Virus record (IMG/VR): IMGVR_UViG_3300020392_000004
DNA from: a virus
Direction: 5' to 3' (one strand)
DNA length: 64,000 bases
The position numbers and the translations under genes are program-made. Positions within the stretch are counted from its first letter, which is position 1; the number at the start of each line of letters is the position of its first letter. Below the pieces are notes generated by a model, which saw only the letters and a program-made list of their open reading frames with translations, did not search any database and was not told where the DNA came from. This document shows positions 7,929 to 23,719 of the stretch, piece after piece.

Positions 7929-8618
7929 TTACTTTGTTAAATTGAATGTTTCGTCTAAATCAAACAAGTTCCAATCTTCATCTATTTGACCTACTTGGTG
8001 ATTTCTCTGATTACCTATGTGATTAGTATTAACATTAAATGAAATAGAGTATCTATCTTTATCAGTTCTATTAGGTTCAACCATATGCATCATGGCACTT
8101 GGAAACATAATTAAACTTCCTGTGACAGGTTTTACTGCATAACTTTCTATACACCTTGCATTTGGTGGGTAATCTGATACAACCTTTGGGTCTGTATTGA
8201 TAGCTAAAAATTGACCTTCGTCTCCTTCTGAATGTATATAAAAAGCTCCACTATACCAACAACCATTGTGTAAGTGAGGTCTATTCCATGCAAGGTGGTC
8301 GTTTATATTTGCCCATGAATTACCTATATCTATCTGAACTTTTCCTCTATCGATACCATGGAATCCTGCTATCTCATTATTTAATATGTCTTTTAAAACT
8401 CTCATCAACTTAATAAATGTAGGGTGATTTTCACAACCGTCATTTGATTGCCAACCAGTATAGGCATTTGATATCTGTCTTCCAACTGGGTCTTTTTTTC
8501 TCATACCATCTATTGCGTCCTTCAACATTCCACAATATTCACTTGTAATCCTACCACTCTCTACAAGGTTTTCCTCATAACAAATAGTTGGAAATAGTAA
8601 TCTAATCCCTTTCTTCAT
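7929..8618 (-). CDS. Putative 2OG-Fe(II) oxygenase (TIGR02466-like)
   Basis: SWANIN...PHLHNGCWYSGAFY...GSLIMFPSAMMHMVEPN...RYSISFN. Confidence 0.85.
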   Translation of the reverse strand: MKKGIRLLFPTICYEENLVESGRITSEYCGMLKDAIDGMRKKDPVGRQISNAYTGWQSNDGCENHPTFIKLMRVLKDILNNEIAGFHGIDRGKVQIDIGNSWANINDHLAWNRPHLHNGCWYSGAFYIHSEGDEGQFLAINTDPKVVSDYPPNARCIESYAVKPVTGSLIMFPSAMMHMVEPNRTDKDRYSISFNVNTNHIGNQRNHQVGQIDEDWNLFDLDETFNLTK

Positions 8619-9546
8619 GTCCGTCCCAGTTTAAGTCTGTCAAACTTCTTTGTTTCTCTTTGAAATCCATTTCTAATTGAACTTCTTCTTTCTTATGCAT
8701 AGGGCATTCGGGTGGAGGATTTTCACCTTCTGCATATAGATTAGCTTTATTAGTTTTAAATCCACCTTTTCTATAACCACCGATATTCAGTCTATCGTCA
8801 ACTGATTTATAAGCACCAGTTTCCATATCTATTAATCCTTGTTTCACTTGCCATTTTTGCATTGATTGTTCTGATATTCCATGGGTATTAAACCAGTCTT
8901 TAGATTCTCCATAAAAATAAGTTGATTTCCATTCGTCTCTTTTATAGGGAACTATTTGTAGTATAGGTGTTCCTTTCGGTATAATAAAAGAATGTTTTAC
9001 TTTAGGATAGAATATAATTTGTGCATTATCCATACCTAAATTAAAAGTATCTGTATCAATTATACCTTGCCATACTGCAAAATATTTATTTTGAAATAAG
9101 AATGGGTCTATGAAAAAAACTGAATAGCCTGGAGGTGTAGTTATGTTCCAAAAGTTTCCCATTTTAAATGCATCTTTTACAGGCCCTTCGTCACCCATAT
9201 ATTCAAATGAATCTTGGAACTGTGCAGCTGGGTGAGTTGGTGACGCTTGCATATTATCACTTCCGTCTAAATGAAATGGGCTAGTGGTCATTCTTTCACT
9301 TTCTTCTGGCCAATCCCAATCAAATCCATTCATAACAGGAATGTCACATGCAGTAATAATATACCAACCAGTTTTTAAATAATCGTCCATGGCTGGACAA
9401 GACCTAACAGTTTGAGCTCCCTCTCCTCTATGGTCAATTCTAATCTTTGCAGTTTTCCACCATTCAGGCATGTATGTTTTTGCAACAACAGGCTTGAATC
9501 TCTGAAAAGCTTCGGGATTATATGTTCTAAATTCAATTGTTGGCAT
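8602..9546 (-). CDS. DUF6065-like hypothetical protein
   Basis: PEWWK, TVRSCPAM.D...GW, W.ITTPPGYS.FF..P, GIIDTD, IPKGTPILQIVP motifs; sits between two oxygenases. Confidence 0.7.
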   Translation of the reverse strand: MPTIEFRTYNPEAFQRFKPVVAKTYMPEWWKTAKIRIDHRGEGAQTVRSCPAMDDYLKTGWYIITACDIPVMNGFDWDWPEESERMTTSPFHLDGSDNMQASPTHPAAQFQDSFEYMGDEGPVKDAFKMGNFWNITTPPGYSVFFIDPFLFQNKYFAVWQGIIDTDTFNLGMDNAQIIFYPKVKHSFIIPKGTPILQIVPYKRDEWKSTYFYGESKDWFNTHGISEQSMQKWQVKQGLIDMETGAYKSVDDRLNIGGYRKGGFKTNKANLYAEGENPPPECPMHKKEEVQLEMDFKEKQRSLTDLNWDGHEERD

Positions 9547-10270
9547 ATCTTTGGTGTTCGTCTAGTAAACGAACTTCGTCTCCTCTTAAAACAATAGACT
9601 TCCTATCTATATATCTTGCGTCTTTAGAGGGTGATTCTGCACCGTGTGGTATTCTTCCGTCAAACATTAAGAGACGATTCGGTTTGAATCCAACTCTTCC
9701 TATTTCATATCTATCCATGAGTTTTCTTGCACCCGTAGGGACATATCTGTCATAAAATCTTAAATCACCACCCCAGTTTTCATTCCAAAAAGTATTAGTG
9801 TAATATAAAAATGATAAATTATAATCGTCTTCCATACTACAATCAGAATGACAACTTCCGTCTAAACCGTGTGTTTGTGAGTTTGTTCCCATGTATTGAA
9901 ATCTTACCCACTCAAAAGCAAAATCAGTTCTAATCTTTCTATCAAACCAATACATTAAATGTGGAGTTCCATATTTGTGTGATTCACATTCTAATTTTAA
10001 GTATCTTCCGTCACCTGCTTCTCTTCCTCTGAAATATGAAGCTCCCCATAATTGGTGATTCGGTAAACCACCTCTACCACCGTCACCTTGAACTTCGTTA
10101 TGTTTTTGCCATGAGGTTCTTTGACTTAAAAAAAGGTCTACTGCTTGATGAAGTGAGGAATCTAGATAATTGTCTATAACATATACCTTATTACCAAGAG
10201 GCAACTCGGTTATATAAAAGGGAGAATCAATATCGATTCTTTCTATAGAGTTATAGGTTTTGCTCGGCAT
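9533..10270 (-). CDS. 2OG-Fe(II) oxygenase, prolyl-4-hydroxylase-like
   Basis: HSD iron-binding motif, LYY.N..W..NWGG.L.F, KPNRLLMFDGRIPH, distal Arg (DRKSIV). Confidence 0.85.
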   Translation of the reverse strand: MPSKTYNSIERIDIDSPFYITELPLGNKVYVIDNYLDSSLHQAVDLFLSQRTSWQKHNEVQGDGGRGGLPNHQLWGASYFRGREAGDGRYLKLECESHKYGTPHLMYWFDRKIRTDFAFEWVRFQYMGTNSQTHGLDGSCHSDCSMEDDYNLSFLYYTNTFWNENWGGDLRFYDRYVPTGARKLMDRYEIGRVGFKPNRLLMFDGRIPHGAESPSKDARYIDRKSIVLRGDEVRLLDEHQRYANN

Positions 10271-10826
10271 TATATCCTCCGTCCTTCAAAGTTGAAGGTG
10301 TAGGTAAAGCCATTAGATAATCTTCGATAGGTTTTAGTGTATCTTCTCTAGTGACAGATATTTCTCTAAATAAACCGTCAAGAACATTGTTAACTGCATC
10401 TGCATATTCAAGAACCCTTCTTGCGTCTGACCTGTAAGGGTGAGCAGAACCTTCTCTTCCAGCATATACTGATTCAAAAAAATCATCAAAACCATGCTTT
10501 TGTGCATGTATATGTATATTTTCTCTTGCAGTTCTATTGATTTCACCAATATATTGATTGTTCAAATTTACACCGTGAGGTGGTTCGGAATTTGCAATAT
10601 ATTGTTCAATACTATCTCTTTCTGTTTCAGATAAAGGTAATGTTTCTTGTTGTTCTAGGGGTTTATCATCTTCCCATTTCAATACTTTGACTTCTATTTG
10701 GTCATATATTAAAACTTCAAAATCAAAACCTAAATCAGGTTTATCGACATTGTCAAATCTATATTCTAGTCCATTTGGTTTTCTAATTGTTAGATTCCCA
10801 AATTCACAATAAGTTAATGCATTCAT
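10251..10826 (-). CDS. Hypothetical protein resembling tail-fibre assembly/chaperone proteins
   Basis: C-terminal pattern AQKHGFDDFFESVYA...PYRSDARRVLEYADAV...YLMALP recalls phage fibre-assembly proteins (recognised by eye only). Confidence 0.5.
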   Translation of the reverse strand: MNALTYCEFGNLTIRKPNGLEYRFDNVDKPDLGFDFEVLIYDQIEVKVLKWEDDKPLEQQETLPLSETERDSIEQYIANSEPPHGVNLNNQYIGEINRTARENIHIHAQKHGFDDFFESVYAGREGSAHPYRSDARRVLEYADAVNNVLDGLFREISVTREDTLKPIEDYLMALPTPSTLKDGGYNAEQNL

Positions 10827-10847
10827 AATAATCTCCAGTATATCACA

Positions 10848-12509
10848 CTAGTCTTTGTTTGGTAAGGTGCTTTTTACCTTATAGTATTGCTCCAACATAT
10901 TTATGTCTGAACAATCCATGTCTTTTATCCACGGCCCACCTCTTGTATAATGGACTGCATGGTGTGAATCAAGACACTCTGTTTCAAATCCCTCTGTTGC
11001 AATTTTCCCATGAGGTATTTTACTAATTTTATCTGTCCACTCAAACTGGTGTAAGTATTTACCAGTTGCAGTATTGACAACTTCGGGTGTTAACTTTTTA
11101 CAATCTTCATGTCCGTTATTAAATATCATCATACTAGACCATAATTTTTTAGGATATGATACATTTCTTTCTCCACCCATTTTAACTTCGTCATGGTGTT
11201 CAAAATCATACTGAACACATGCCACCGCATTGTCGGGGTCAAGGAAATAGAAAAATGGTAAAGGTGTTCTTTTCCATATGTAATCATTATCTATGAAGAT
11301 ACTAAATCCTTCATAGTTTTCAAGATATGGAATTAAAAATCTACTGTAAGTAAATTCAGTAGATTGATTTGCATAGTCTCTATTATAATCTTTTAATTTG
11401 CTAATGTCAAGTAATTTAACTTCTATTTTGTAATCATTGAAGTAATCTTCTCCGACTCCTCTACTTTTTGACTTTTCTATGCTATCATGTATTGACTTTT
11501 CACAAACTTCATGTATAATATTATCGTGAGAAGAATCATAACCAATGTATATGTTTAGAGGCTTCTTTTTACATAACAATGAAACCTTTTTATTGAAATC
11601 ATAAACATATTTTCTAAAATCTGTTCCCCCTCCCTGTTGTAAAGGAACACTAAATTCTATTTTTCTTTGGTCTGTATAAATTGCACTTACATTTTTAGAA
11701 TTTTCAGGGACTAGAGATAACCAATATGTTTTTAAATCTTCATATGATAAACTAGGGTGTCTTGGAAAACAATTTGCATAATCTGTGACTAGACAAGTAT
11801 TATCAGGATAATCCATAGATTGAAAAGACCTACTTCTCATTGAGCCTGGGTGTATAGATAAAGAATTTATACCGCCATGATTTCCTGTGTGTTGAGTTAG
11901 TCCTTGGATAGGTTGCCAGAGACCATTATTTTGTATGTCATTTATTAACCAGTGTGCTTTTGCAGCGTGATAAAACACAGATTGTATAGTATTTTCATGT
12001 TCTAATACCATTGATTCGTCCATGGAACCACCCATTAAATCAATATAATCTTGATTACCTTCTTGATAACCATACATTTTTGCAAATCTTTTTCTTTCTT
12101 CGTCTGTAATTTTTAAGGGTGTCGTTATGGTTTTATATTCTCCTTCCACTGTCATAAAATCCATGGAACCACCTTTTATTCCATGTCGAGGTCTACATTT
12201 TTCTGTCCAACCTTCATGTAAGAATTTTAAATATTGATAAGAATTATGGTCTAGTCCACCCCATGACATAATTTCTTTATTGTCCATTAAAGGTTTTATA
12301 TCTTTCCATGTGACTAATCTGATAGGAGGCATACATTCTTCTATGATATATTTCCAAACCTCTTCGGTTTCGTCTGTATCTCTTCTATGCTCTGGTATAG
12401 GGACTTGACCTAATTTCATTTGCCTAGTAGGCATATCTTCATAAGAAGTATAAGGTTTAAAAAACTGTTTTGCTTTTTCTAGGGTGTTGATTTCTTCAAA
12501 AGTATCCAT
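10848..12509 (-). CDS. Two-domain protein: N-terminal ParB/Srx-like domain fused to a GT-A glycosyltransferase
   Basis: C-half IYIGYDS...STEFTYSRFLIPYL...FIDND...YPKKLWSSMMIFN...HYTRGGPW; N-half WLINDIQNNGLWQPIQ...HPGSMR. Confidence 0.8.
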   Translation of the reverse strand: MDTFEEINTLEKAKQFFKPYTSYEDMPTRQMKLGQVPIPEHRRDTDETEEVWKYIIEECMPPIRLVTWKDIKPLMDNKEIMSWGGLDHNSYQYLKFLHEGWTEKCRPRHGIKGGSMDFMTVEGEYKTITTPLKITDEERKRFAKMYGYQEGNQDYIDLMGGSMDESMVLEHENTIQSVFYHAAKAHWLINDIQNNGLWQPIQGLTQHTGNHGGINSLSIHPGSMRSRSFQSMDYPDNTCLVTDYANCFPRHPSLSYEDLKTYWLSLVPENSKNVSAIYTDQRKIEFSVPLQQGGGTDFRKYVYDFNKKVSLLCKKKPLNIYIGYDSSHDNIIHEVCEKSIHDSIEKSKSRGVGEDYFNDYKIEVKLLDISKLKDYNRDYANQSTEFTYSRFLIPYLENYEGFSIFIDNDYIWKRTPLPFFYFLDPDNAVACVQYDFEHHDEVKMGGERNVSYPKKLWSSMMIFNNGHEDCKKLTPEVVNTATGKYLHQFEWTDKISKIPHGKIATEGFETECLDSHHAVHYTRGGPWIKDMDCSDINMLEQYYKVKSTLPNKD

Positions 12510-12519
12510 AATATAAAAG

Positions 12520-12527
12520 TATTTAGT
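12520..12527 (-). promoter_or_regulatory. Late promoter variant ACTAAATA upstream of the modification-enzyme cluster
   Basis: tatttagt on + strand, 10 nt from the ATG at 12509. Confidence 0.5.
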
Positions 12528-12536
12528 TAATTAAAA

Positions 12537-13433
12537 TTAACTAGAAATCGGAGTTCCAGGCCACTGTTGTTGTAATACACCGTCCCATCTTGGAACTGGT
12601 GTTCTTCCTTGTCTTGCGTAAGTGGTTGGATTCTGATTTGAATATGTAGTCGGTGTTTGACCCTGTCTAGCATAAGTCGAAGGACTTCTATGATTGTAAG
12701 TAAATGGTGTCTGACCTTGTCTTGCATAAGTTGTTGGGTTCTGATTTGCATAGGTAAAAGGAGTTCGTCCTGTTGCCTGATATGTTGAAGGTGACCTAAA
12801 GTTATATGTAAACGGTGTTTGACCTTGTCTCTCGTATGTTGACGGAGATTGATAATCATAAGTAGACGGTGTTTGACCCTGTCTTTCATAAGTTGAAGGA
12901 GACTGATAATCATATGTGAAAGGTGTTTGACCTGTTCTTTGATATGTTGAAGGTGACCTATAATCGTAAGTAGAAGGTTGCCTTGCGTCTCTTATGTTTG
13001 GTTCTTGTGCTGACCTAATGTTTGGTTCTTGTGCTGACCTAATGTTTGGTTCTTGAGCATTAGCAGGGTATGTAAATGGTTGTTGTCCTGACCTAATATT
13101 AGGCTCCTGTGCTGACACTGGGTTTCTGTAAGTGAAAGGTGACCTATGATGATATGTAAAAGGTTGTCTTGCTGGTGCTTGATATGTAAAGGGTGACCTA
13201 TAATGATATGTAAAAGGTTGTCTTGCTGGTGCCTGATAGGTGAATGGTGACCTATAATGATATGTAAATGGACTTCTAGCAGGTGCTTGATATGTAAACG
13301 GTGACCTATAGTTATAAGTGAATGGTTGTCTTGCACTTGCAATATATGGGTTTTGAGTTCCGTATGGGCTCTGATAACTTGCACCGACTGGTTGTCTTGC
13401 TTGAAATGTAAATGGACTCTGATAAAATGGCAT
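12537..13433 (-). CDS. Pro-anchored Q/P/Y/T/S/R repeat protein (zipper strand B)
   Basis: 31 units of 6-12 aa (e.g. PFTYHYRS, PSTYERQGQT, PNIRSAQE) over residues 7-278; start 2 nt after the upstream stop. Confidence 0.88.
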   Translation of the reverse strand: MPFYQSPFTFQARQPVGASYQSPYGTQNPYIASARQPFTYNYRSPFTYQAPARSPFTYHYRSPFTYQAPARQPFTYHYRSPFTYQAPARQPFTYHHRSPFTYRNPVSAQEPNIRSGQQPFTYPANAQEPNIRSAQEPNIRSAQEPNIRDARQPSTYDYRSPSTYQRTGQTPFTYDYQSPSTYERQGQTPSTYDYQSPSTYERQGQTPFTYNFRSPSTYQATGRTPFTYANQNPTTYARQGQTPFTYNHRSPSTYARQGQTPTTYSNQNPTTYARQGRTPVPRWDGVLQQQWPGTPISS

Positions 13434-14785
13434 AATTATCTCTTCTGCATGTTATGGACTACAAAGTCATTTGCAAAGAAGTTAGCATTATCACTTACAC
13501 GAGTCAAGTGATAGACCTCATGTTCTCCTTCCAGTTTGTTAATATTTGATATTTTTGCAGTTGATTGATTGTTTAAAATCAATGATAATGAATCTACAAG
13601 AATATCCCCCTCTTCAATTAGGCCAGAGATTTCTCCACCCCAAGCTGCACCCATGGCAACTTCTTTTTCCCAATCTTCCATGTTTATGACACACCAACCT
13701 TTATCTTGAATCAACATTGGGTGTCCACCAGTCACACCAGTAATCTTACCGTTGACTTCTATATCATATAATTCACATACTCTAGGTTGCATAATTTCTT
13801 CGACCACTCCAACTTCTAGTGTATCTCCTAGTGTCATGACTGACATACCAATCTCTATAGACTCGATAGGTCTGTATGTATTGTCTCCCATCCATATCAT
13901 AGTTCCCATTGCGAAACAACCGTGTCCAGTAGGTAAGCCTGGTGAACCACCGCCTGGGTAGTAAACTGGTTGTCTTGCTTGACCGATATATGGACTCTGA
14001 TATGAGAACGGAACTGGTTGTCTTGCACTGCCCGGCTGTCGTGCATGATAGGTAAATGGGTTTTGAGCAGACCTAATGTTTGGTTGCTGAATATTCGCAG
14101 GATATGTAATTGGTTGTTGAGCAGACCTAATGTTTGGTTGCTGAATATTCGCAGGATATGTAAATGGATTCTGTCCATTCCTGATATTCGGTTGTTGAAT
14201 ATTTGCTGGATATGTAAATGGATTCTGTCCATTCCTGATATTAGGCTCCTGTGCTGACACTGGGTTTCTGTATGTAAACGGTGACCTATAGTTATATGTA
14301 AATGGACTCCTTGCTGATGCTTGATAAGTGAACGGAGACCTGTAGTTATATGTAAACGGTGACCTATGATTGTATGTAAAAGGTGACCTATGGTCGTATG
14401 TGAACGGATTCTGTCTGTTCCTTATATTCGGTTCCTGTGCATTTGCAATGTAAGGATATGGCTGTTGTGCATTTCTGATATTAGGTTCCTGTGCATTTGC
14501 CTGATAAGGATAAGGAGTTTGTTTATTCCTTATGTTTGGTTCTTGAGCATTTGCAATGTAAGGATATGGTTGTTGTGCGTCCCTAATGTTTGGTTCCTGT
14601 GCATTTGCAATATACGGATAAGGTTGTTGTGCATTTGCAATATAAGGTGACCCACCGTTTGCAATATAAGGATAAGGTTGTTGTGCGTCTCTTATATTTG
14701 GTTCTTGAGCATTTGCAATGTATGGATATGGATTCTGTGCATTTGCAATGTATGGAGAACCACCCTGTGCAATATATGGGTAAGG
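12600..14785 (-). repeat. Coding tandem repeats (24/30/54-bp periodicity) in the two repeat genes
   Basis: Degenerate 54-bp units; a 35-bp identical segment is shared by the two genes at 13096-13130 and 14238-14272. Confidence 0.9.
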
Positions 14786-14947
14786 TTGTTGTGTTGCCTC
14801 TTGACCTGAAGCATTATTCCACCCGCCTGGAGCTTTGATATAAATTTGGTCAACTGCTTTCCAAGTAGACGGGCCTGTCTTGACCCATGCACCTTGAGTT
14901 GCATTCCAACCTGATGGGGTTTTAACTTTCTGTGAACCTGACGCCAT
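13436..14947 (-). CDS. Pro-anchored repeat protein (zipper strand A) with N-terminal Trp-rich adaptor and C-terminal Hint domain
   Basis: N-term KVKTPSGW/WVKTGPSTW/IYIKAPGGW; 31 repeat units over residues 55-326; Hint domain G|CFAMGTMIWMGD...VTGGHP...VYHL...NFFANDFVVHN. Confidence 0.9.
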   Translation of the reverse strand: MASGSQKVKTPSGWNATQGAWVKTGPSTWKAVDQIYIKAPGGWNNASGQEATQQPYPYIAQGGSPYIANAQNPYPYIANAQEPNIRDAQQPYPYIANGGSPYIANAQQPYPYIANAQEPNIRDAQQPYPYIANAQEPNIRNKQTPYPYQANAQEPNIRNAQQPYPYIANAQEPNIRNRQNPFTYDHRSPFTYNHRSPFTYNYRSPFTYQASARSPFTYNYRSPFTYRNPVSAQEPNIRNGQNPFTYPANIQQPNIRNGQNPFTYPANIQQPNIRSAQQPITYPANIQQPNIRSAQNPFTYHARQPGSARQPVPFSYQSPYIGQARQPVYYPGGGSPGLPTGHGCFAMGTMIWMGDNTYRPIESIEIGMSVMTLGDTLEVGVVEEIMQPRVCELYDIEVNGKITGVTGGHPMLIQDKGWCVINMEDWEKEVAMGAAWGGEISGLIEEGDILVDSLSLILNNQSTAKISNINKLEGEHEVYHLTRVSDNANFFANDFVVHNMQKR

Positions 14948-14973: not shown

Positions 14974-17031
14974 TTAGGAGTATAGAATCCATAAATCACC
15001 AACTGCTCCGTCTGAACCCGTAGGTGCAGAAGTTGACTGATAAATGTTTCTTGCAGTTCCACCGTTATTTGTTGCATTCGTAATTGTGACTGCACCAGTA
15101 TTAACTGCACTTGGTGTAATTGTTAAATTACCTGTAGATGCACCTGTAAATGAACCTGTTCCAAATGTGATTGCATCTGCACTTTCGTCCCAACCAATAA
15201 ACACATTGTCTGAACTTCCTCTCTCAATGACTAAACCTGCGTCATTTGAAGGTGAACCTGATGTTCCATTTCCTAATTCTATCAATGCATCTGATATTGT
15301 TGTGTTGGTTGAACTAACTGTTGAAGTTGTTCCGTTAACTGTTAAGTTTCCTGAAAGTGTTAAGTTTCCAAATTGAACATTACTGTTTGTTGCAACTGCC
15401 TGACCGATACTAACTTCACCTGAACTGATTGAAACACCAGTTCCACCACTGATATGAGCTCTTACTTCTGAAGCACTTGGGCCAGTATATGTAATTACAC
15501 CTGTAGAGTTATTATATGCTAATCCACCGTCTCCACCTGAATCTGTGACCGATATCGCTTGTCTTGCATTTGCATCTGCATATTGTGTTATTGAAGTTGC
15601 AACTGTTAAAGTATTACTTGCATCGTCATATGTTGTTGTGATACCTGTTCCTTCTTGTATCAATGCATTTACTCTATCGTCAACTCTTTCGTTTGTAAAA
15701 TATAAATTAGAAGAACCTTCTGATAATGCATCTGTATTTGCAAGAACTGAACCACCCAATGAAGTTGCAGAACCACCAATTGTTATACTGGAGTTTGCTA
15801 ACATTGAATTTAAAATTACACCTGAACCGATTGAAAAGTCTAAAGTTCCGTCTCCGTCTTCGTATGTGACTGCAATACCAGTTTCAGTATTAGATGATAC
15901 CATTCCACCAACAATATCTTGAACTCTTTCAGTAGTCATATAGAGATTACTTGACCCTTCTCCGATATCGTCTGTATCTAATGTAAGTGTATTTCCTAAT
16001 GCAACTGTGTTTGAATTTAATGTAATTGAACTATTTGCAAGTTTTGCGTTTGCAATTGAACCAGCAAGTTTATCGTTTGCAATTGAACCTGCTAACATGG
16101 CATTTGTTATACCACTTGCTTTTACTTGAACTGTATCAGAATCTATCTCTAAAGAACTATCATCTACTTGAACATTAAGTGTGACATCTCCTGATGTTCC
16201 ACCACCTGTTAGACCATTACCAGCAACTACTGATTCTATGTCACCAGCGTCATTTGTAAATGATATAACACCAGTTGAACTATTGTATGATAAGTCACCA
16301 CTAGCACTGATTGCACTTCTTGCTCTTGCATTTGTAAAATATTGATTTGTTGAACCTTCTGTTAGTGAATCTGTGTTCTCTGCACCACCGAGTATAACTG
16401 AATTACCCATTCCACTGTGGTTTGAACAATAGAAATACATAGGGTTATTTGATTCTTGGTCAAATGCAACTTCTGTATATGAACCACTTGAGCCTGGAGT
16501 TCCTACTTTATTATAAATTGAATAACCGTCTGTCATTTCTGAACCGTCTGCTGATTCAGAGAATCTTAATGGGTGTGAAGCGTTTGAACTATCTGACTGG
16601 TCAAATCTATAAACTACATTTGGAGTTAGTCTTAAAGGTTGTGAGGACGATTGACCGTCAAATGCATACTTATTACCACCGTCACTTATAACTGTGACAA
16701 CTACTCTATGATAATAAGGTGCAGTAGTATTGTTTAGTTGTTGTTCTACATCTAGTGTGACGGTTCCACTGGTTCCACCACCATCTAGGTTTGTTCCAGC
16801 TGTGACTCCTGTTATATCTCCAACTTGACCGTTGATAGTAAGAGTTCCAGCAGAATCATCATATGATAATGATACTCCTGTTCCAGCTGTTAGTAAAGAA
16901 TTTACTTGGTCGTCTATCTTTTCTAGGGCTGCAGTTCCGAATGCAGCTGCAGTTAAATCACCTGAACTGTCTAATACTTCGGTATCCCCTACGGATAGAC
17001 CATTTTTAATTTTAAAGTTTACATCTGCCAT
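14974..17031 (-). CDS. Tail/virion fibre protein with cupredoxin-like domain
   Basis: G/S/T-rich; TDxLxEGSxNxYFTNARAR repeats; HPLRFS...YFYCSNHSGMG domain; C-terminal SAPTGSDGAVGDLW. Confidence 0.8.
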   Translation of the reverse strand: MADVNFKIKNGLSVGDTEVLDSSGDLTAAAFGTAALEKIDDQVNSLLTAGTGVSLSYDDSAGTLTINGQVGDITGVTAGTNLDGGGTSGTVTLDVEQQLNNTTAPYYHRVVVTVISDGGNKYAFDGQSSSQPLRLTPNVVYRFDQSDSSNASHPLRFSESADGSEMTDGYSIYNKVGTPGSSGSYTEVAFDQESNNPMYFYCSNHSGMGNSVILGGAENTDSLTEGSTNQYFTNARARSAISASGDLSYNSSTGVISFTNDAGDIESVVAGNGLTGGGTSGDVTLNVQVDDSSLEIDSDTVQVKASGITNAMLAGSIANDKLAGSIANAKLANSSITLNSNTVALGNTLTLDTDDIGEGSSNLYMTTERVQDIVGGMVSSNTETGIAVTYEDGDGTLDFSIGSGVILNSMLANSSITIGGSATSLGGSVLANTDALSEGSSNLYFTNERVDDRVNALIQEGTGITTTYDDASNTLTVATSITQYADANARQAISVTDSGGDGGLAYNNSTGVITYTGPSASEVRAHISGGTGVSISSGEVSIGQAVATNSNVQFGNLTLSGNLTVNGTTSTVSSTNTTISDALIELGNGTSGSPSNDAGLVIERGSSDNVFIGWDESADAITFGTGSFTGASTGNLTITPSAVNTGAVTITNATNNGGTARNIYQSTSAPTGSDGAVGDLWILYS

Positions 17032-20823: not shown

Positions 20824-22419
20824 TTATCCCTCGCCAGAGATATATGGTGTTTGTCCACCGTCACCTTCACTTCCTTTTTGGAATTGTGCGTTTGGAACTG
20901 CTTGGTGTATCTTTTCTATACCTTGAGGTGCATGGACATATACCTCTTGTGCTTTTGCAACTACACCTTGGTTATTTACAAAGACACCTTTTACTTTTGC
21001 AACAGCTCCAACTGGTCTAGTTGTAGTGTATGGTTGTCTAGCAATATACGGAGAACTGTAAATATACGGTTGTGGTTGTTGGTGTATATAAGGAAATGGT
21101 TGTCTTCCTGTTGCACTACTCGTGACTTGTTGAGTTCTCTGAACAGAATATTGAGAAGGTGATTGATAATCATATGTAAAAGGACTTCTTGCATCTGCAA
21201 TATAAGGATATGGATTTTGTTTATCTCTTATATTAGGTTGTTGTATAGAAGCAGGATTATTATAAATCGAAGGTGATTGATAATCATATGTAAATGGTGT
21301 TTGACCTGTTCTTTGATATTCAGAAGGTGACTGATAATCATATGTGCTTGGTTGTTGGTATTGATATATTACTGGTTGTCTTGCATCCTTAATAGTTGGT
21401 TGTTGTCCCTGTCTTGCCTCTGCATATGGTGAGTTATATTCATATGTGCTTGGTGACCTATTTGGTTGTCGAGAAATATAAGGTTGTTGTGTTTCGAATG
21501 TTGGTGTTCTCCCCTGTCGAGAATATGTAAATGGTGACTGTGTCTGTGCTTGTGCTTGGCCTGGGATTTGGTAAGCGTGGTCTTCCCCTGAAAAGGGGTT
21601 AAAATAAAATGTTGTATTTTGAGCCTGTGTAATATATGGAACAGGTTGACCACCATTTGCAATATACGGATACGGATTTTGTGTCGATATTGCTTGAAAG
21701 GAACTTGGAGACCGTTTACTAGCATTTGGGATAGATGTTTGATATTGATATATGGCAAAGCCTGGAGAATCATCATCAAAGAAACGCCCTGGCGCCTGTG
21801 GAAACGGAGAAGATTGATAAGTTCCGAGATTCGGTTGTTGGTGTTGGTATATAACAGGATTTTGAACATTATGTGGTTGTGATACTCCCGCCTGTGCAAT
21901 TGGTCTCTGTGCATTAAAAGAAGATTGAACACTTGTTTGTTTGTTTCTAATTACTGGTTGTGTAAATTGTCCAATATAAGGAAATGGTGATTGATAATCA
22001 TATGTAAAAGGACTCTGTTTACTTACATCTTGTTTAGTAGTTTGTTTATTTCTTATATTCGGCTCTTGTGCGCTTGCAATATATGGATATGGTTGTTGTG
22101 CGCTTCTTATAAAAGGGTTCTGTCCTTGAGTTGAATTCTGATATGTAAACGGAGACTGATAATCATATGTGCTTGGTTGTTGACCCTGTCTTGCATATGT
22201 AAAAGGTTGTTGTGCGTCCTTAATAGTTGGTTGTTGATTCTGTGCTTGGTGGACATAGAAAGCAGGACTTTGGTAAATGAAAGGATATGGTTGTTGTCCT
22301 TGTCTATTTACTGAAACCTGTGTTATTCTTTGTGTTGTTTCAAAAGCTTGATATGCAACTTGACCCTGATAGGGTTGTTGGATTTGTGTCCCTTGATTTA
22401 TGTATATTTCATCAGCCAT
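20824..22419 (-). CDS. Pro-anchored repeat protein, internally mirror-symmetric
   Basis: Same unit vocabulary (PFTYDYQS, PNIRDKQN, PYPYIASAQE); C-terminal adaptor KGVFVNNQG/EVYVHAPQG. Confidence 0.88.
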   Translation of the reverse strand: MADEIYINQGTQIQQPYQGQVAYQAFETTQRITQVSVNRQGQQPYPFIYQSPAFYVHQAQNQQPTIKDAQQPFTYARQGQQPSTYDYQSPFTYQNSTQGQNPFIRSAQQPYPYIASAQEPNIRNKQTTKQDVSKQSPFTYDYQSPFPYIGQFTQPVIRNKQTSVQSSFNAQRPIAQAGVSQPHNVQNPVIYQHQQPNLGTYQSSPFPQAPGRFFDDDSPGFAIYQYQTSIPNASKRSPSSFQAISTQNPYPYIANGGQPVPYITQAQNTTFYFNPFSGEDHAYQIPGQAQAQTQSPFTYSRQGRTPTFETQQPYISRQPNRSPSTYEYNSPYAEARQGQQPTIKDARQPVIYQYQQPSTYDYQSPSEYQRTGQTPFTYDYQSPSIYNNPASIQQPNIRDKQNPYPYIADARSPFTYDYQSPSQYSVQRTQQVTSSATGRQPFPYIHQQPQPYIYSSPYIARQPYTTTRPVGAVAKVKGVFVNNQGVVAKAQEVYVHAPQGIEKIHQAVPNAQFQKGSEGDGGQTPYISGEG

Positions 22420-22420
22420 A

Positions 22421-23719
22421 TCATGTCACAAACCATAAGTGACCGACACTAGTTGACCCAACACCTGTCGGTGCAGAAGACACTACCTCATAATCTAATT
22501 CGACATCGTCACCATCGATTTTCACTCCGTTAGATGTATTTACACTGAATGAACCTGAACCACTTAATGCAAGTCCAGCTCCACCACTTAAGTATGATTG
22601 AACATCTGAATCACCATATTGTGCAGAACCATTTATAGTTAGGGTATTATTTGCATCGTTATATGACAAAGATATACCTGTTCCACCGATTAAACCTTCA
22701 CCACCTGTAGTAGTTCCTGATAGATAATCTAATACTCTCTCTCCTGTAAAATAGAGATTAGTTCCACCCTCTGTGACTGTATCCGAGGTTTGTTGATTAG
22801 TTGGAACATATTTACTTGAAGAAGAATTATATACTAATATCTGTCCGTCTGTTGGTGAAGTAGTATCAACATCACTTAAATCTGTTATTTGGTGATTTGT
22901 AATACTTGATACTGTTCCAGTCAATGCACCTGTTGAGGCGTCTAATACAACTGAACCACCATGTTTAACATCACCAGTAATATCACCAGTGACATTACCT
23001 GTTAAATTACCAACCAATGCACTAGAAGTTATAGAACTAAATCCTGTTCCCACTCCACCTGTTATTGTTGCAGTTCCGTCTGTTATAGAAGGTGATTCAA
23101 AAGTATGTCCTGTATCGATTTTAACATCACCATTAATGAAAGTATTACCTTCATTTTGAATTTGATATCCTGATTGTAATGAAGTGGCTGCAGTTAGAGT
23201 TCCATTTAGAATTACTCCTGCTGAATTAGTATTGTAGATTGTGTTCGAAGCAGTCTCGGTAAACTTACCTCCACCGCCACCACCGTCAGCAGCGACTCCA
23301 CTTTCAGAACCAGTGTATGAATATATTGTTATGACATCATTAGCACTTGTTGCAGCGTTTATTAGTAATCCACTATTAAAAACATCACCAGAGCTTATTG
23401 CAGAAAAACCTGCTGTTCCTGACCCACCCTCGATTAGGTGATTACCATTTAAGTAAACTTGTATTTTACCTTGTCTATATTTTAAAACATTTCCATTTTG
23501 GTCTGGCCCTGAAAAAGTCACCTGGCCTGCGGTTGCAACATATTCAAATTGTTGAAAGAAGAATGTTTTATCTTCGATTACATTTATTGCATCTACTATA
23601 GTATTTGGACTTTTTAATGAGCCTCTTAAACCTGTAAGGCTCCCCACTTCATTTACAAGTGTGTTGTATGAACCTCTAAATTCATTTAGAGTTTGATTTT
23701 CATTTATTGTATTAGCCAT
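22421..23719 (-). CDS. Fibre protein
   Basis: N-terminal helical attachment region, QVYLNG domain, GNLTGNVTGDITG repeats, LSDVD..DGQILVYN motif, C-terminal SAPTGVGSTSVGHLW. Confidence 0.75.
   Translation of the reverse strand: MANTINENQTLNEFRGSYNTLVNEVGSLTGLRGSLKSPNTIVDAINVIEDKTFFFQQFEYVATAGQVTFSGPDQNGNVLKYRQGKIQVYLNGNHLIEGGSGTAGFSAISSGDVFNSGLLINAATSANDVITIYSYTGSESGVAADGGGGGGKFTETASNTIYNTNSAGVILNGTLTAATSLQSGYQIQNEGNTFINGDVKIDTGHTFESPSITDGTATITGGVGTGFSSITSSALVGNLTGNVTGDITGDVKHGGSVVLDASTGALTGTVSSITNHQITDLSDVDTTSPTDGQILVYNSSSSKYVPTNQQTSDTVTEGGTNLYFTGERVLDYLSGTTTGGEGLIGGTGISLSYNDANNTLTINGSAQYGDSDVQSYLSGGAGLALSGSGSFSVNTSNGVKIDGDDVELDYEVVSSAPTGVGSTSVGHLWFVT

Follow-up and report, generated by a model that had tools for sequence, protein, structure and literature searches.

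Mirror-image repeat arms in two adjacent genes of marine T4-like phages suggest a modular pairing code between two protein chains

Two neighboring viral genes raise the question of how two different proteins came to carry the same series of repeat units in opposite orders, and whether this correspondence reflects pairing between the two chains. The genes, here called A and B, lie on the minus strand of the window, the 64,000-nucleotide stretch of IMG/VR record IMGVR_UViG_3300020392_000004 that was analyzed; all features below are on this strand. Gene A (13436..14947), as read from its ORF and translation, encodes a 503-aa protein composed of a base domain, a repeat arm, a Gly-rich tail, and a Hint domain. 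Gene B (12537..13433) encodes 298 aa and begins 2 nt past the A stop codon. In total, 409 homologues of gene A were found in marine metagenomes, none of them named, and gene B had no match in Pfam, PHROG, or the PDB (the last by sequence search). No A/B homologue was detected in cultured phages by megablast and tblastn, and a query of the ESM Atlas with B returned no model and no usable match. The genes belong to the host-recognition region, a hypervariable part of the genome in abundant marine T4-like phages; the closest relatives in culture infect SAR11 and OM43.

The initial annotation proposed that the repeat arm of A is an exact mirror image of that of B. When both proteins were cut at the anchoring Pro, translation confirmed 31 units and 272 aa for the arm of A (aa 55–326; 13970..14785) and likewise for the arm of B (aa 7–278; 12600..13415), and superposition showed that the two arms mirror each other without a gap. 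The unit lengths of A (10,8,10,8,...,12,...,8,6,8,8) are the series of B reversed, down to the one 12 and the one 6 that each contains. The internal prolines are mirrored as well, with 35 of 37 B prolines falling on A prolines in a single gapless superposition. The facing rules that had been read from the units also held. All 14 PNIR-type 8-mers lie opposite PxTY-type 8-mers, with either protein as the carrier, and all seven PYPY 10-mers lie opposite xTYxRQG-type 10-mers; the two PYIANAQx units stand opposite the two PxTYxNQN units, the PFTYPANxQ units opposite PFTYQA[PS]AR units, and the 12-mer opposite itself. This 12-mer, which is the same in A (aa 223–234; 14246..14281) and B (aa 99–110; 13104..13139), combines a TY-type 6-mer with a non-TY 6-mer. 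It is therefore no exception to a heterotypic code, since it forms two heterotypic 6-mer pairs once the prolines are taken as anchors. The exact mirror architecture of A and B was thus confirmed.

The symmetry was also correctly described as something other than a DNA inverted repeat. Facing units have chance-level reverse-complement identity (0.13–0.38), and no inverted repeat of at least 24 nt was found within 12537–14947, which rules out an origin by inverted DNA duplication or antisense translation. An antisense-codon origin is also incompatible with Pro standing opposite Pro. At the DNA level, the B copy of the 12-mer is identical to the A copy at 33 of 36 nt in direct orientation, and it lies inside a 35-nt exact direct repeat.

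The mirror was then examined in 61 distinct homologous A/B gene pairs from marine viral contigs, which were compared by a segmentation-free proline superposition. Reciprocal gain and loss of units, named beforehand as a test that could refute the proposal, was borne out: 47 of the 61 divergent pairs were gapless mirrors in one fixed register. These 47 pairs span 37 architectures of 178–532 residues. In cognate pairs, a median of 94% of B prolines landed on A prolines, compared with a median of 36% and a 95th percentile of 60% in non-cognate A/B combinations (n = 3624). In the 22 pairs that carry the Hint domain, the arm lengths of A and B were correlated with r = 0.999 (B arm 186–468 aa). Unit count ranged from 23 to 69, and unit order varied freely. 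The 14 pairs without a gapless mirror were all Hint-less. In six of these, the arms were mismatched by entire modules (18, 28, 44, or 88 residues); a sibling contig with a perfect mirror existed for some of the six. The presence of such mismatches in 6 of 61 pairs indicates either that perfect complementarity is not obligatory or that some contigs are misassembled.

The repeat units follow a strict two-residue periodicity. All 1823 joint Pro–Pro spacings were even, and the prolines occupied a single two-residue phase in A (2224/2225) and in B (1892/1921), whereas the other phase held 99% of Tyr, 98% of Phe, and 95 to 99% of His. A preference for code-matched partners, the second test named in advance, was evident, as 878 of 897 facing 8-mer pairs were heterotypic and TY/TY pairs numbered 0. 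Heterotypic pairing was likewise found for 6-mers (529/577) and 10-mers (212/230). The anti-diagonal covariation between the two proteins that the annotation had called for was also observed. The top position pairs all joined two odd positions, with i+j equal to L or L±2, and lay on one face only; their Z values against within-locus shuffles were 19–59 in 6-mers and 8-mers and 11–13 in 10-mers. No covariation was found for the directly opposite Pro-face pair (4,4). The covariation was independent of which gene bears which unit, and a fine code trained on one orientation predicted the other with accuracies of 81% and 94% against baselines of 40% and 70%. In this code, when the residue that follows Pro in a TY unit is Phe, it pairs with Ala/Gly; Leu in that place pairs with Gln plus Glu, and Asp with Arg. 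Directly opposite and diagonal residues alike are matched by size and charge. Pro, Ile, Asp, Thr, and Arg lie on one face, and the code residues on the other. Part of the covariation could stem from co-duplicated modules rather than from contacts.

Even spacings, a two-residue phase, and anti-diagonal covariation on one face together form the pattern characteristic of an antiparallel β-ladder in which prolines face prolines. At the sequence level, its features are these: 98 to 100% of prolines in phase, 95 to 99% of Tyr, Phe, and His in the other phase, and Pro facing Pro throughout. The strict periodicity supports an extended β conformation, and the mirror relation of the chains implies that they run antiparallel. 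The mirrors, the heterotypic pairing, and the anti-diagonal covariation lend support to the original proposal that A and B would pair antiparallel in a sequence-programmed register.

The explanation we favor, and consider quite probable, is that A and B are the two chains of a long, thin, hetero-oligomeric fiber that a marine T4-like myovirus encodes in its host-recognition region. A bolder reading, with a probability of roughly 0.55, makes A and B a naturally occurring protein duplex in which partner and register are set by a modular pairing code of equal-length, opposite-type units whose opposite and diagonal residues are matched. Each arm would be an extended, β-strand-like chain with prolines at even spacings of 4–12 residues, and the arms would run antiparallel along their whole length. 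An aromatic TY-type unit, with Phe, Tyr, or His as knobs, would face an equal-length Ala/Asn/Gln-type unit of the other chain, so that the unit and residue code would write both register and partner into the sequence. Compensatory insertions and deletions of whole units in both genes would keep the register during evolution. If the chains pair physically in β conformation and as strictly two strands, the ribbon in the window would be about 90 nm long. A fully exposed two-stranded ribbon of about this length with an aromatic face has no structural precedent known to us, and the exposure of that face makes it likely that several such ribbons pack together. Because the genes lie in a hypervariable host-recognition region, they may encode a fiber of adjustable length. 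The arms of A, B, and the related protein C matched no Pfam or PHROG family, including phage tail fiber families, and the one fiber-like feature is the genomic context.

The N-terminal domain of A (aa 1–54; 14786..14947) is a conserved, Trp-rich β domain in the alignment, near-invariant across 49 homologues (alignment A1), and it would form the base at the open end of the duplex together with the conserved C-terminal P..RWDG...WP motif of B (aa 279–298; 12540..12599; alignment A2). The first Pro of this motif stands opposite the first Pro of the A arm at the base end, and this register is fixed in all mirrored pairs. At the proposed tip, the aromatic and Gly-rich tail of A (aa 327–343; 13919..13969), whose last residue is Gly343, would meet the N-terminus of B. 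Complex prediction with the base-end fragments A 1–126 and B 207–298 (alignments A1 and A2) gave a score of 0.04, which speaks neither for nor against binding.

A rather unlikely alternative is that A and B do pair but in another geometry than an isolated two-stranded ribbon, with the A/B ladder forming part of a larger assembly in which two or three ribbons pack by their aromatic faces or the ladder runs along another fiber protein. One face of the ladder is nearly all aromatic and small residues over hundreds of residues, which would hardly remain in solvent. Phage fibers are usually trimeric, and both zipper-type genes come after fiber genes whose C-terminal ends carry a similar motif. However, the sequences demand no third partner, and because unit order is free and the A/B mirror is the sole constraint, the dominant lateral contact should be that between A and B.

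Protein C (20824..22419) is a related single-chain protein of 531 aa in which units of the N-terminal and C-terminal halves face each other by the same code. The self-mirror was significant in six distinct homologues, in which 0 of 200 shuffles reached the observed value; for the window's own protein C, the gapless self-mirror was not significant (43 of 200 shuffles). In an AF2 model of the single-chain relative L155 (alignment A3), the N- and C-termini were brought together with a pLDDT of ~70; only this joint β domain of the two termini was usable, and the repeat arms had a pLDDT below 40. The C-terminal domain of protein C showed weak similarity to aa 1–54 of A (E 0.025).

The existence of single-chain relatives lends something to the view that A and B do not touch, and that the mirror either reflects antiparallel binding of both to a common third scaffold or was left by a palindromic ancestor that split and has persisted through linkage. 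The 35-nt direct repeat joins both genes, so one- and two-chain forms could interconvert. This view is nevertheless very improbable. Each of the 37 architectures is mirrored, and neither ancestry nor linkage can hold later indels reciprocal; the residue covariation is anti-diagonal, confined to one face, and transferable between orientations; and a third scaffold would need to co-vary, and none was seen. Equally improbable is the reading that the arms are disordered or polyproline-like substrates, resembling extensins or mussel proteins, of the neighboring oxygenases and putative transferase, and that unit order has no structural meaning. In the loci examined, genes for two 2OG-Fe(II) oxygenases and for a conserved protein of 553 aa lie directly downstream, and Pro, Tyr, Ser, and Thr are abundant in the arms. 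Disorder, however, cannot account for the exact mirror or for covariation between two genes, and the even spacings give a two-residue repeat, not the three-residue repeat of polyproline II; modification and pairing are, moreover, not mutually exclusive. Other folds were rejected: a collagen-like triple helix by the lack of Gly triplets and by spacings that are even rather than multiples of 3, a gp5-like β-solenoid or triple β-helix by freely varying unit order and length and by the mirrored chains, and polyproline II and α-helical models by the periodicity and variable unit order.

The preferred duplex resembles several known rods in principle. The streptococcal antigen I/II stalk (SpaP, SspB, BspA) exceeds 50 nm and has two different antiparallel repeat regions of matched number with interlocking tyrosines, terminal domains that clasp its ends, and a functional tip domain (PMC7732690). 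In that stalk, an α-helical Ala-rich region is wound with a Pro-rich region of the same chain, and the repeats are few and of fixed order. In contrast, A and B are encoded by two genes, have a strict two-residue periodicity, 23–69 units whose order varies freely, a code at the level of units and residues, and no sequence similarity to the stalk; neither the heptads nor the single chain of an antigen I/II-type stalk was found, and the principle alone is alike. The coiled-coil arms of SMC/Rad50 proteins and the α/β-spectrin heterodimer are also long antiparallel rods, of two paired segments or, in spectrin, two chains, whose lengths must co-vary, but they are built of α-helical heptads or 106-residue repeats and have no proline punctuation or heterotypic code of 4–12-residue units. 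The C-terminal triple-stranded β-helix of T4 gp5, like other phage fiber β-structures, is a phage structural β module with octapeptide repeats and one residue class per face (PMC3004832); gp5 is a parallel homotrimer of constant period, whereas A and B have periods of 4–12 and are different, mirror-image chains.

No description of a mirror-complementary fiber pair was found in the literature searched. If the duplex is real, it would be the protein counterpart of strand complementarity, evolving by compensatory unit indels, and physical pairing would represent a new principle of fibrous protein architecture, with two chains recognizing each other over 60–180 nm by a legible modular code. It could also serve the design of addressable β-ribbon heterodimers of chosen length, offering protein science a ready rule set for programmable heterodimers of a kind that designers find hard to control. 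The 37 mirrored architectures would then amount to a natural mutational experiment and a clean case of inter-protein coevolution through compensatory indels.

In A, the repeat arm and tail are followed by a Hint domain (Cys344–Asn499; 13451..13918), assigned by profile, fold, and catalytic residues. Profile comparison with the PDB matched BIL2 (7e-15), BIL 2LWY (2e-13), and a DnaB mini-intein (7e-12); a single-sequence Pfam scan gave 24.5 bits, under the curated cut-off of 35.8. The AF2 model of the domain had a pLDDT of 89.8, and Foldseek returned BIL2 6Y75 as the best match (E 4e-10, TM 0.75/0.84); the top matches, BIL2 and 2LWY, had TM scores of 0.7–0.84, and a DnaB mini-intein was matched as well. 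This best structural match is a BIL domain of the Tetrahymena BUBL locus. The N-terminal Gly-Cys and the block-B His-Pro were invariant in 19 aligned homologues, the nucleophile and the block-B Thr-x-x-His of the Hint superfamily are present, and the domain ends in an invariant His-Asn. The fold, Cys1, the block-B His, the terminal His-Asn, the lack of a +1 nucleophile, and the position at the end of a variable protein are shared with BIL and Hedgehog-type Hint domains (PDB 6Y75/6TMM, 2LWY).

Past the His-Asn, A has a four-residue tail and a stop codon (13436..13450), and the residue after Asn is Met, which is not a nucleophile. Among 20 distinct homologues with tails of 4–27 aa, the +1 residue was never Cys, Ser, or Thr (it was Met, Leu, Arg, Phe, Gly, Tyr, or Ile). 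A splicing intein that joins A to B was rejected on the grounds of the missing +1 nucleophile, the intervening stop codon, and the position of B in a different frame 2 nt downstream. Judged by its residues, the domain is BIL- or mini-intein-like and incapable of splicing. With Cys344 as the nucleophile, mature A would end at Gly343, and about one-third of lineages make A with a C-terminal Hint domain that probably removes itself by cutting at Gly343/Cys344. In Tetrahymena, the BIL domains of the BUBL locus conjugate proteins via amine attack on a thioester. It is conceivable, but unlikely, that the thioester at Gly343 is resolved not by water but by an amine positioned by zipping, such as the N-terminus of B, which would covalently close the hairpin. 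No report of a BIL or Hint domain at the tip of a phage fiber-like repeat protein was found in the literature searched, and a Hint domain at this position would be a possible case of autoprocessing in fiber assembly. The domain is dispensable, since 39 of the 61 pairs lack it; the A homologues that lack it end a few residues past the same Gly run.

Genes A (13436-14947, minus strand; 503 aa) and B (12537-13433, minus strand; 298 aa) are separated by 2 nt, and each encodes a Pro-anchored repeat arm. In protein A, the arm (aa 55-326) is preceded by a conserved, Trp-rich N-terminal domain (aa 1-54) and followed by a Gly-rich tail (aa 327-343), a BIL/mini-intein-like (Hint) domain (Cys344-Asn499), and four final residues. 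In protein B, a six-residue lead precedes the arm (aa 7-278), and a conserved C-terminal motif of 20 residues follows it. The initial annotation had described the two arms as mirror images, and this observation is confirmed: when cut at the anchoring prolines, each arm comprised 31 units and 272 residues, the reversed unit-length series of B was exactly that of A, and all of the listed unit pairings were correct on re-checking. In a gapless overlay of reversed B on A, made without segmentation, 35 of the 37 B prolines, internal ones included, coincided with A prolines. As had also been claimed, the symmetry is not a DNA inverted repeat; the reverse-complement identity of facing units was at chance level (13-38%), and no inverted repeat of at least 24 nt was found in the A/B region. 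Between A and B, DNA similarity runs in direct orientation, in the form of 54-nt repeat families and, at the 12-mer, an exact match of 35 nt (A 14238-14272, B 13096-13130). Recombination at this 35-nt repeat would remove 1142 bp and join A units 1-20 to B units 13-31, and the product would be a self-complementary single-chain hairpin. Long open frames also cross the arms, out of frame with A and B on the minus strand (12527-12913, 12992-13384, and 13897-14232) and on the plus strand (14018-14257, 14390-14650, and 14590-14838); most likely they are a side effect of the low stop-codon content of the repeats rather than genes.

A search of 50,697 cultured-phage records returned no homologue of A or B. 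More than 100 related loci were found in IMG/VR, together with 409 protein homologues in a protein collection, all unnamed and from marine metagenomes, and 61 distinct A/B pairs were extracted for comparison. In 47 of these pairs, at least 85% of the B prolines fell on A prolines in one gapless superposition with a single fixed register, in which the opening proline of the B C-terminal motif stands opposite the first proline of the A arm. The median proline match was 94% over all 61 cognate pairs and 36% over 3624 non-cognate combinations (95th percentile 60%), showing that the unit series of homologous pairs are correlated. Perfect mirrors occurred in 37 distinct architectures, whose arms were 178-532 residues long, and the closest relative (81% identical), which has 28 units including an extra 6-mer, was again an exact mirror. 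Among the 22 Hint-bearing pairs, the arm lengths of A and B were correlated with r = 0.999 (B arm, 186-468 residues), and every pair departing from the mirror was Hint-less. Six pairs (L014, L020, L022, L024, L034, and L058) were off by exactly one or two whole modules (18, 28, 44, or 88 residues), and perfectly mirrored sibling contigs were found for L022 (L021), L020 and L034 (L035), and L058 (L047). These mismatched pairs are either collapsed tandem-repeat assemblies or uncompensated evolutionary intermediates.

With prolines as anchors, a single rule summarized the pairing code: units carrying the aromatic xTY motif (TY units) stand opposite equally long units that lack it. Facing units were heterotypic in 878 of 897 8-mer pairs, in favour of a preference for code-matched partners, and TY/TY pairs were absent among the 8-mers. 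The same held for 529 of 577 6-mer pairs, and PYPY-type 10-mers stood opposite xTYxRQG-type units in 212/230 pairs. The 12-mer that appeared to face itself consists of two 6-mers, the first TY and the second non-TY, and thus obeys the rule.

Residues within facing units were then numbered from the proline (position 0), with alpha denoting the non-TY unit and beta the TY unit. In 545 PNIR/TY 8-mer pairs, beta position 1 covaried with alpha positions 5 and 7 (mutual information 1.3 and 1.0 bits; Z 53 and 66, respectively, from within-locus shuffles). Phe at beta 1 corresponded to Ala/Gly and Gln at alpha 5 and 7, Leu to Gln and Glu, Ala to Asn/Ser and Thr, Thr to Lys and Asn, and Asp to Arg and Asn. 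Covariation between the proteins was anti-diagonal: in all unit classes the top couplings joined odd positions to odd positions, and i+j was the unit length or differed from it by 2. The strongest were (5,1), (7,1), (3,5), (3,7), (1,5), and (1,7) in 8-mers, (7,1) and (9,1) in 10-mers, and (1,5), (3,1), (1,3), and (5,1) in 6-mers. This is the pattern predicted for contacts between directly facing residues and between diagonal ones, all on a single face of an antiparallel ladder with a Pro-opposite-Pro register. Covariation can be inflated by co-duplicated modules, yet these would not easily confine it to a single face and the anti-diagonal band. The rule learnt with alpha in A predicted alpha-in-B units with 81% accuracy (baseline 40%), and that learnt with alpha in B predicted alpha-in-A units with 94% accuracy (baseline 70%).

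Prolines shared by A and B were always an even number of residues apart (1823 spacings, range 4-26). In 46 pairs, 2224/2225 A prolines and 1892/1921 B prolines lay in one phase, which was shared by Ile (95%) and Asp (92%); Tyr (99%), Phe (98%), His (95-99%), Val (96%), and Ala (83-96%) occupied the opposite phase. Alpha-helical, collagen, and polyproline II periodicities are incompatible with this two-residue repeat. A solenoid is unlikely, because its coil length would need to be constant while the unit order varies freely. A two-residue repeat that never slips over as many as 530 residues is what would be expected of a beta strand in extended conformation whose two faces differ.

Taken as comparative sequence evidence, these results support the zipper interpretation, in which A and B would pair directly and antiparallel in a register set by the code (probability roughly 0.85). 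An extended beta ladder with proline opposite proline is quite likely; at 3.3 Å per residue, fully extended arms would span ~90 nm in the window and ~60-175 nm among family members. Of the two-stranded antiparallel beta-ribbon originally proposed, the antiparallel pairing stands at this level, and "two-stranded" is the least secure part; several ribbons are expected to pack together, since one face is aromatic throughout.

Protein C (20824-22419, minus strand), a single-chain relative, has N-half units opposite C-half units by the A/B heterotypic rules, and in its family (L154-L182) a central non-repeat region of ~150 aa lies between the facing halves. The gapless self-mirror of the window's own C was broken at a 9-versus-8 unit and was not significant (43/200 shuffles as high); that of six distinct homologues was significant (0/200 shuffles). 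Facing units were heterotypic in 13/14 cases in L155 and 9/11 in L156. AF2 gave no fold for the arms of the L155 protein and brought its N-terminal strand and C-terminal beta domain together (pLDDT ~70), a modelled contact that would fit a hairpin topology.

A profile of 19 Hint homologues matched PDB entries for BIL2 domains (7e-15), a bacterial intein-like domain (2e-13), and the DnaB mini-intein (7e-12), and the AF2 model (pLDDT 89.8) had TM scores of 0.7-0.84 to these structures. Gly-Cys1, the block-B His-Pro, and the terminal His-Asn were invariant. The +1 residue was never a nucleophile and only 4-27 residues remained after the terminal Asn, which rules out a splicing intein and points to a probable autoprocessing domain. 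Hint most likely releases A with its C-terminus at Gly343. The domain was absent from 39 of the 61 pairs, and most Hint-less A proteins stop a few residues past the same Gly run; a few have a different C-terminal domain of ~170 aa and a small extra ORF ahead of B. In the L043-L045 variant module (e.g. L043:6001-10172), A lacks Hint and has a C-terminal non-repeat domain of ~170 aa, an additional ORF of 86 aa separates A from B, and the mirror is still perfect over arms that exceed 520 aa. The mirror would place Hint beside the B N-terminus, at the duplex tip. Residue 2 of every B examined (window and L001-L153) was Pro, Ala, Ser, or Val, so the initiator Met should be removed, which should leave a small, free N-terminal residue beside the A C-terminus at the tip.

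SMC/Rad50 arms and the spectrin heterodimer have only antiparallel length matching in common with the A/B pair. In phage beta-helices, for example T4 gp5, the period is constant and the chains form a parallel homotrimer (PMC3004832). The nearest analogue in principle is the streptococcal antigen I/II stalk (>50 nm), in which tyrosines interlock two antiparallel repeat regions of the same chain (PMC7732690); it differs in being alpha-helical plus Pro-rich, single-chain, and without variable order. No published description of the A/B family or of such a code was found in the literature searched.

The window is a piece of a T4-like myovirus and carries genes for tail sheath, terminase, and baseplate wedge and hub, as well as fibre-like genes. 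Judged by gp6, the cultured phages closest to it are Methylophilales phage Melnitz and Pelagibacter phages Mosig and HTVC008M (~40% identity). We lean towards a virion fibre role for A and B. Fibre-like genes (14974-17031 and 22421-23719, minus strand) immediately precede A and C and share a similar terminal SAPTG...G[DH]LW motif; the base domain may attach to such a product. Directly downstream of B, a conserved block (7929-12509, minus strand), kept in the related loci examined, encodes a 553-aa protein (phrog_28018, DxD-like motif), a 191-aa protein, a 2OG-Fe(II) oxygenase (PF13640), a 314-aa protein, and a second oxygenase (PF13759), and may hydroxylate or glycosylate the Pro/Tyr/Ser/Thr-rich arms.
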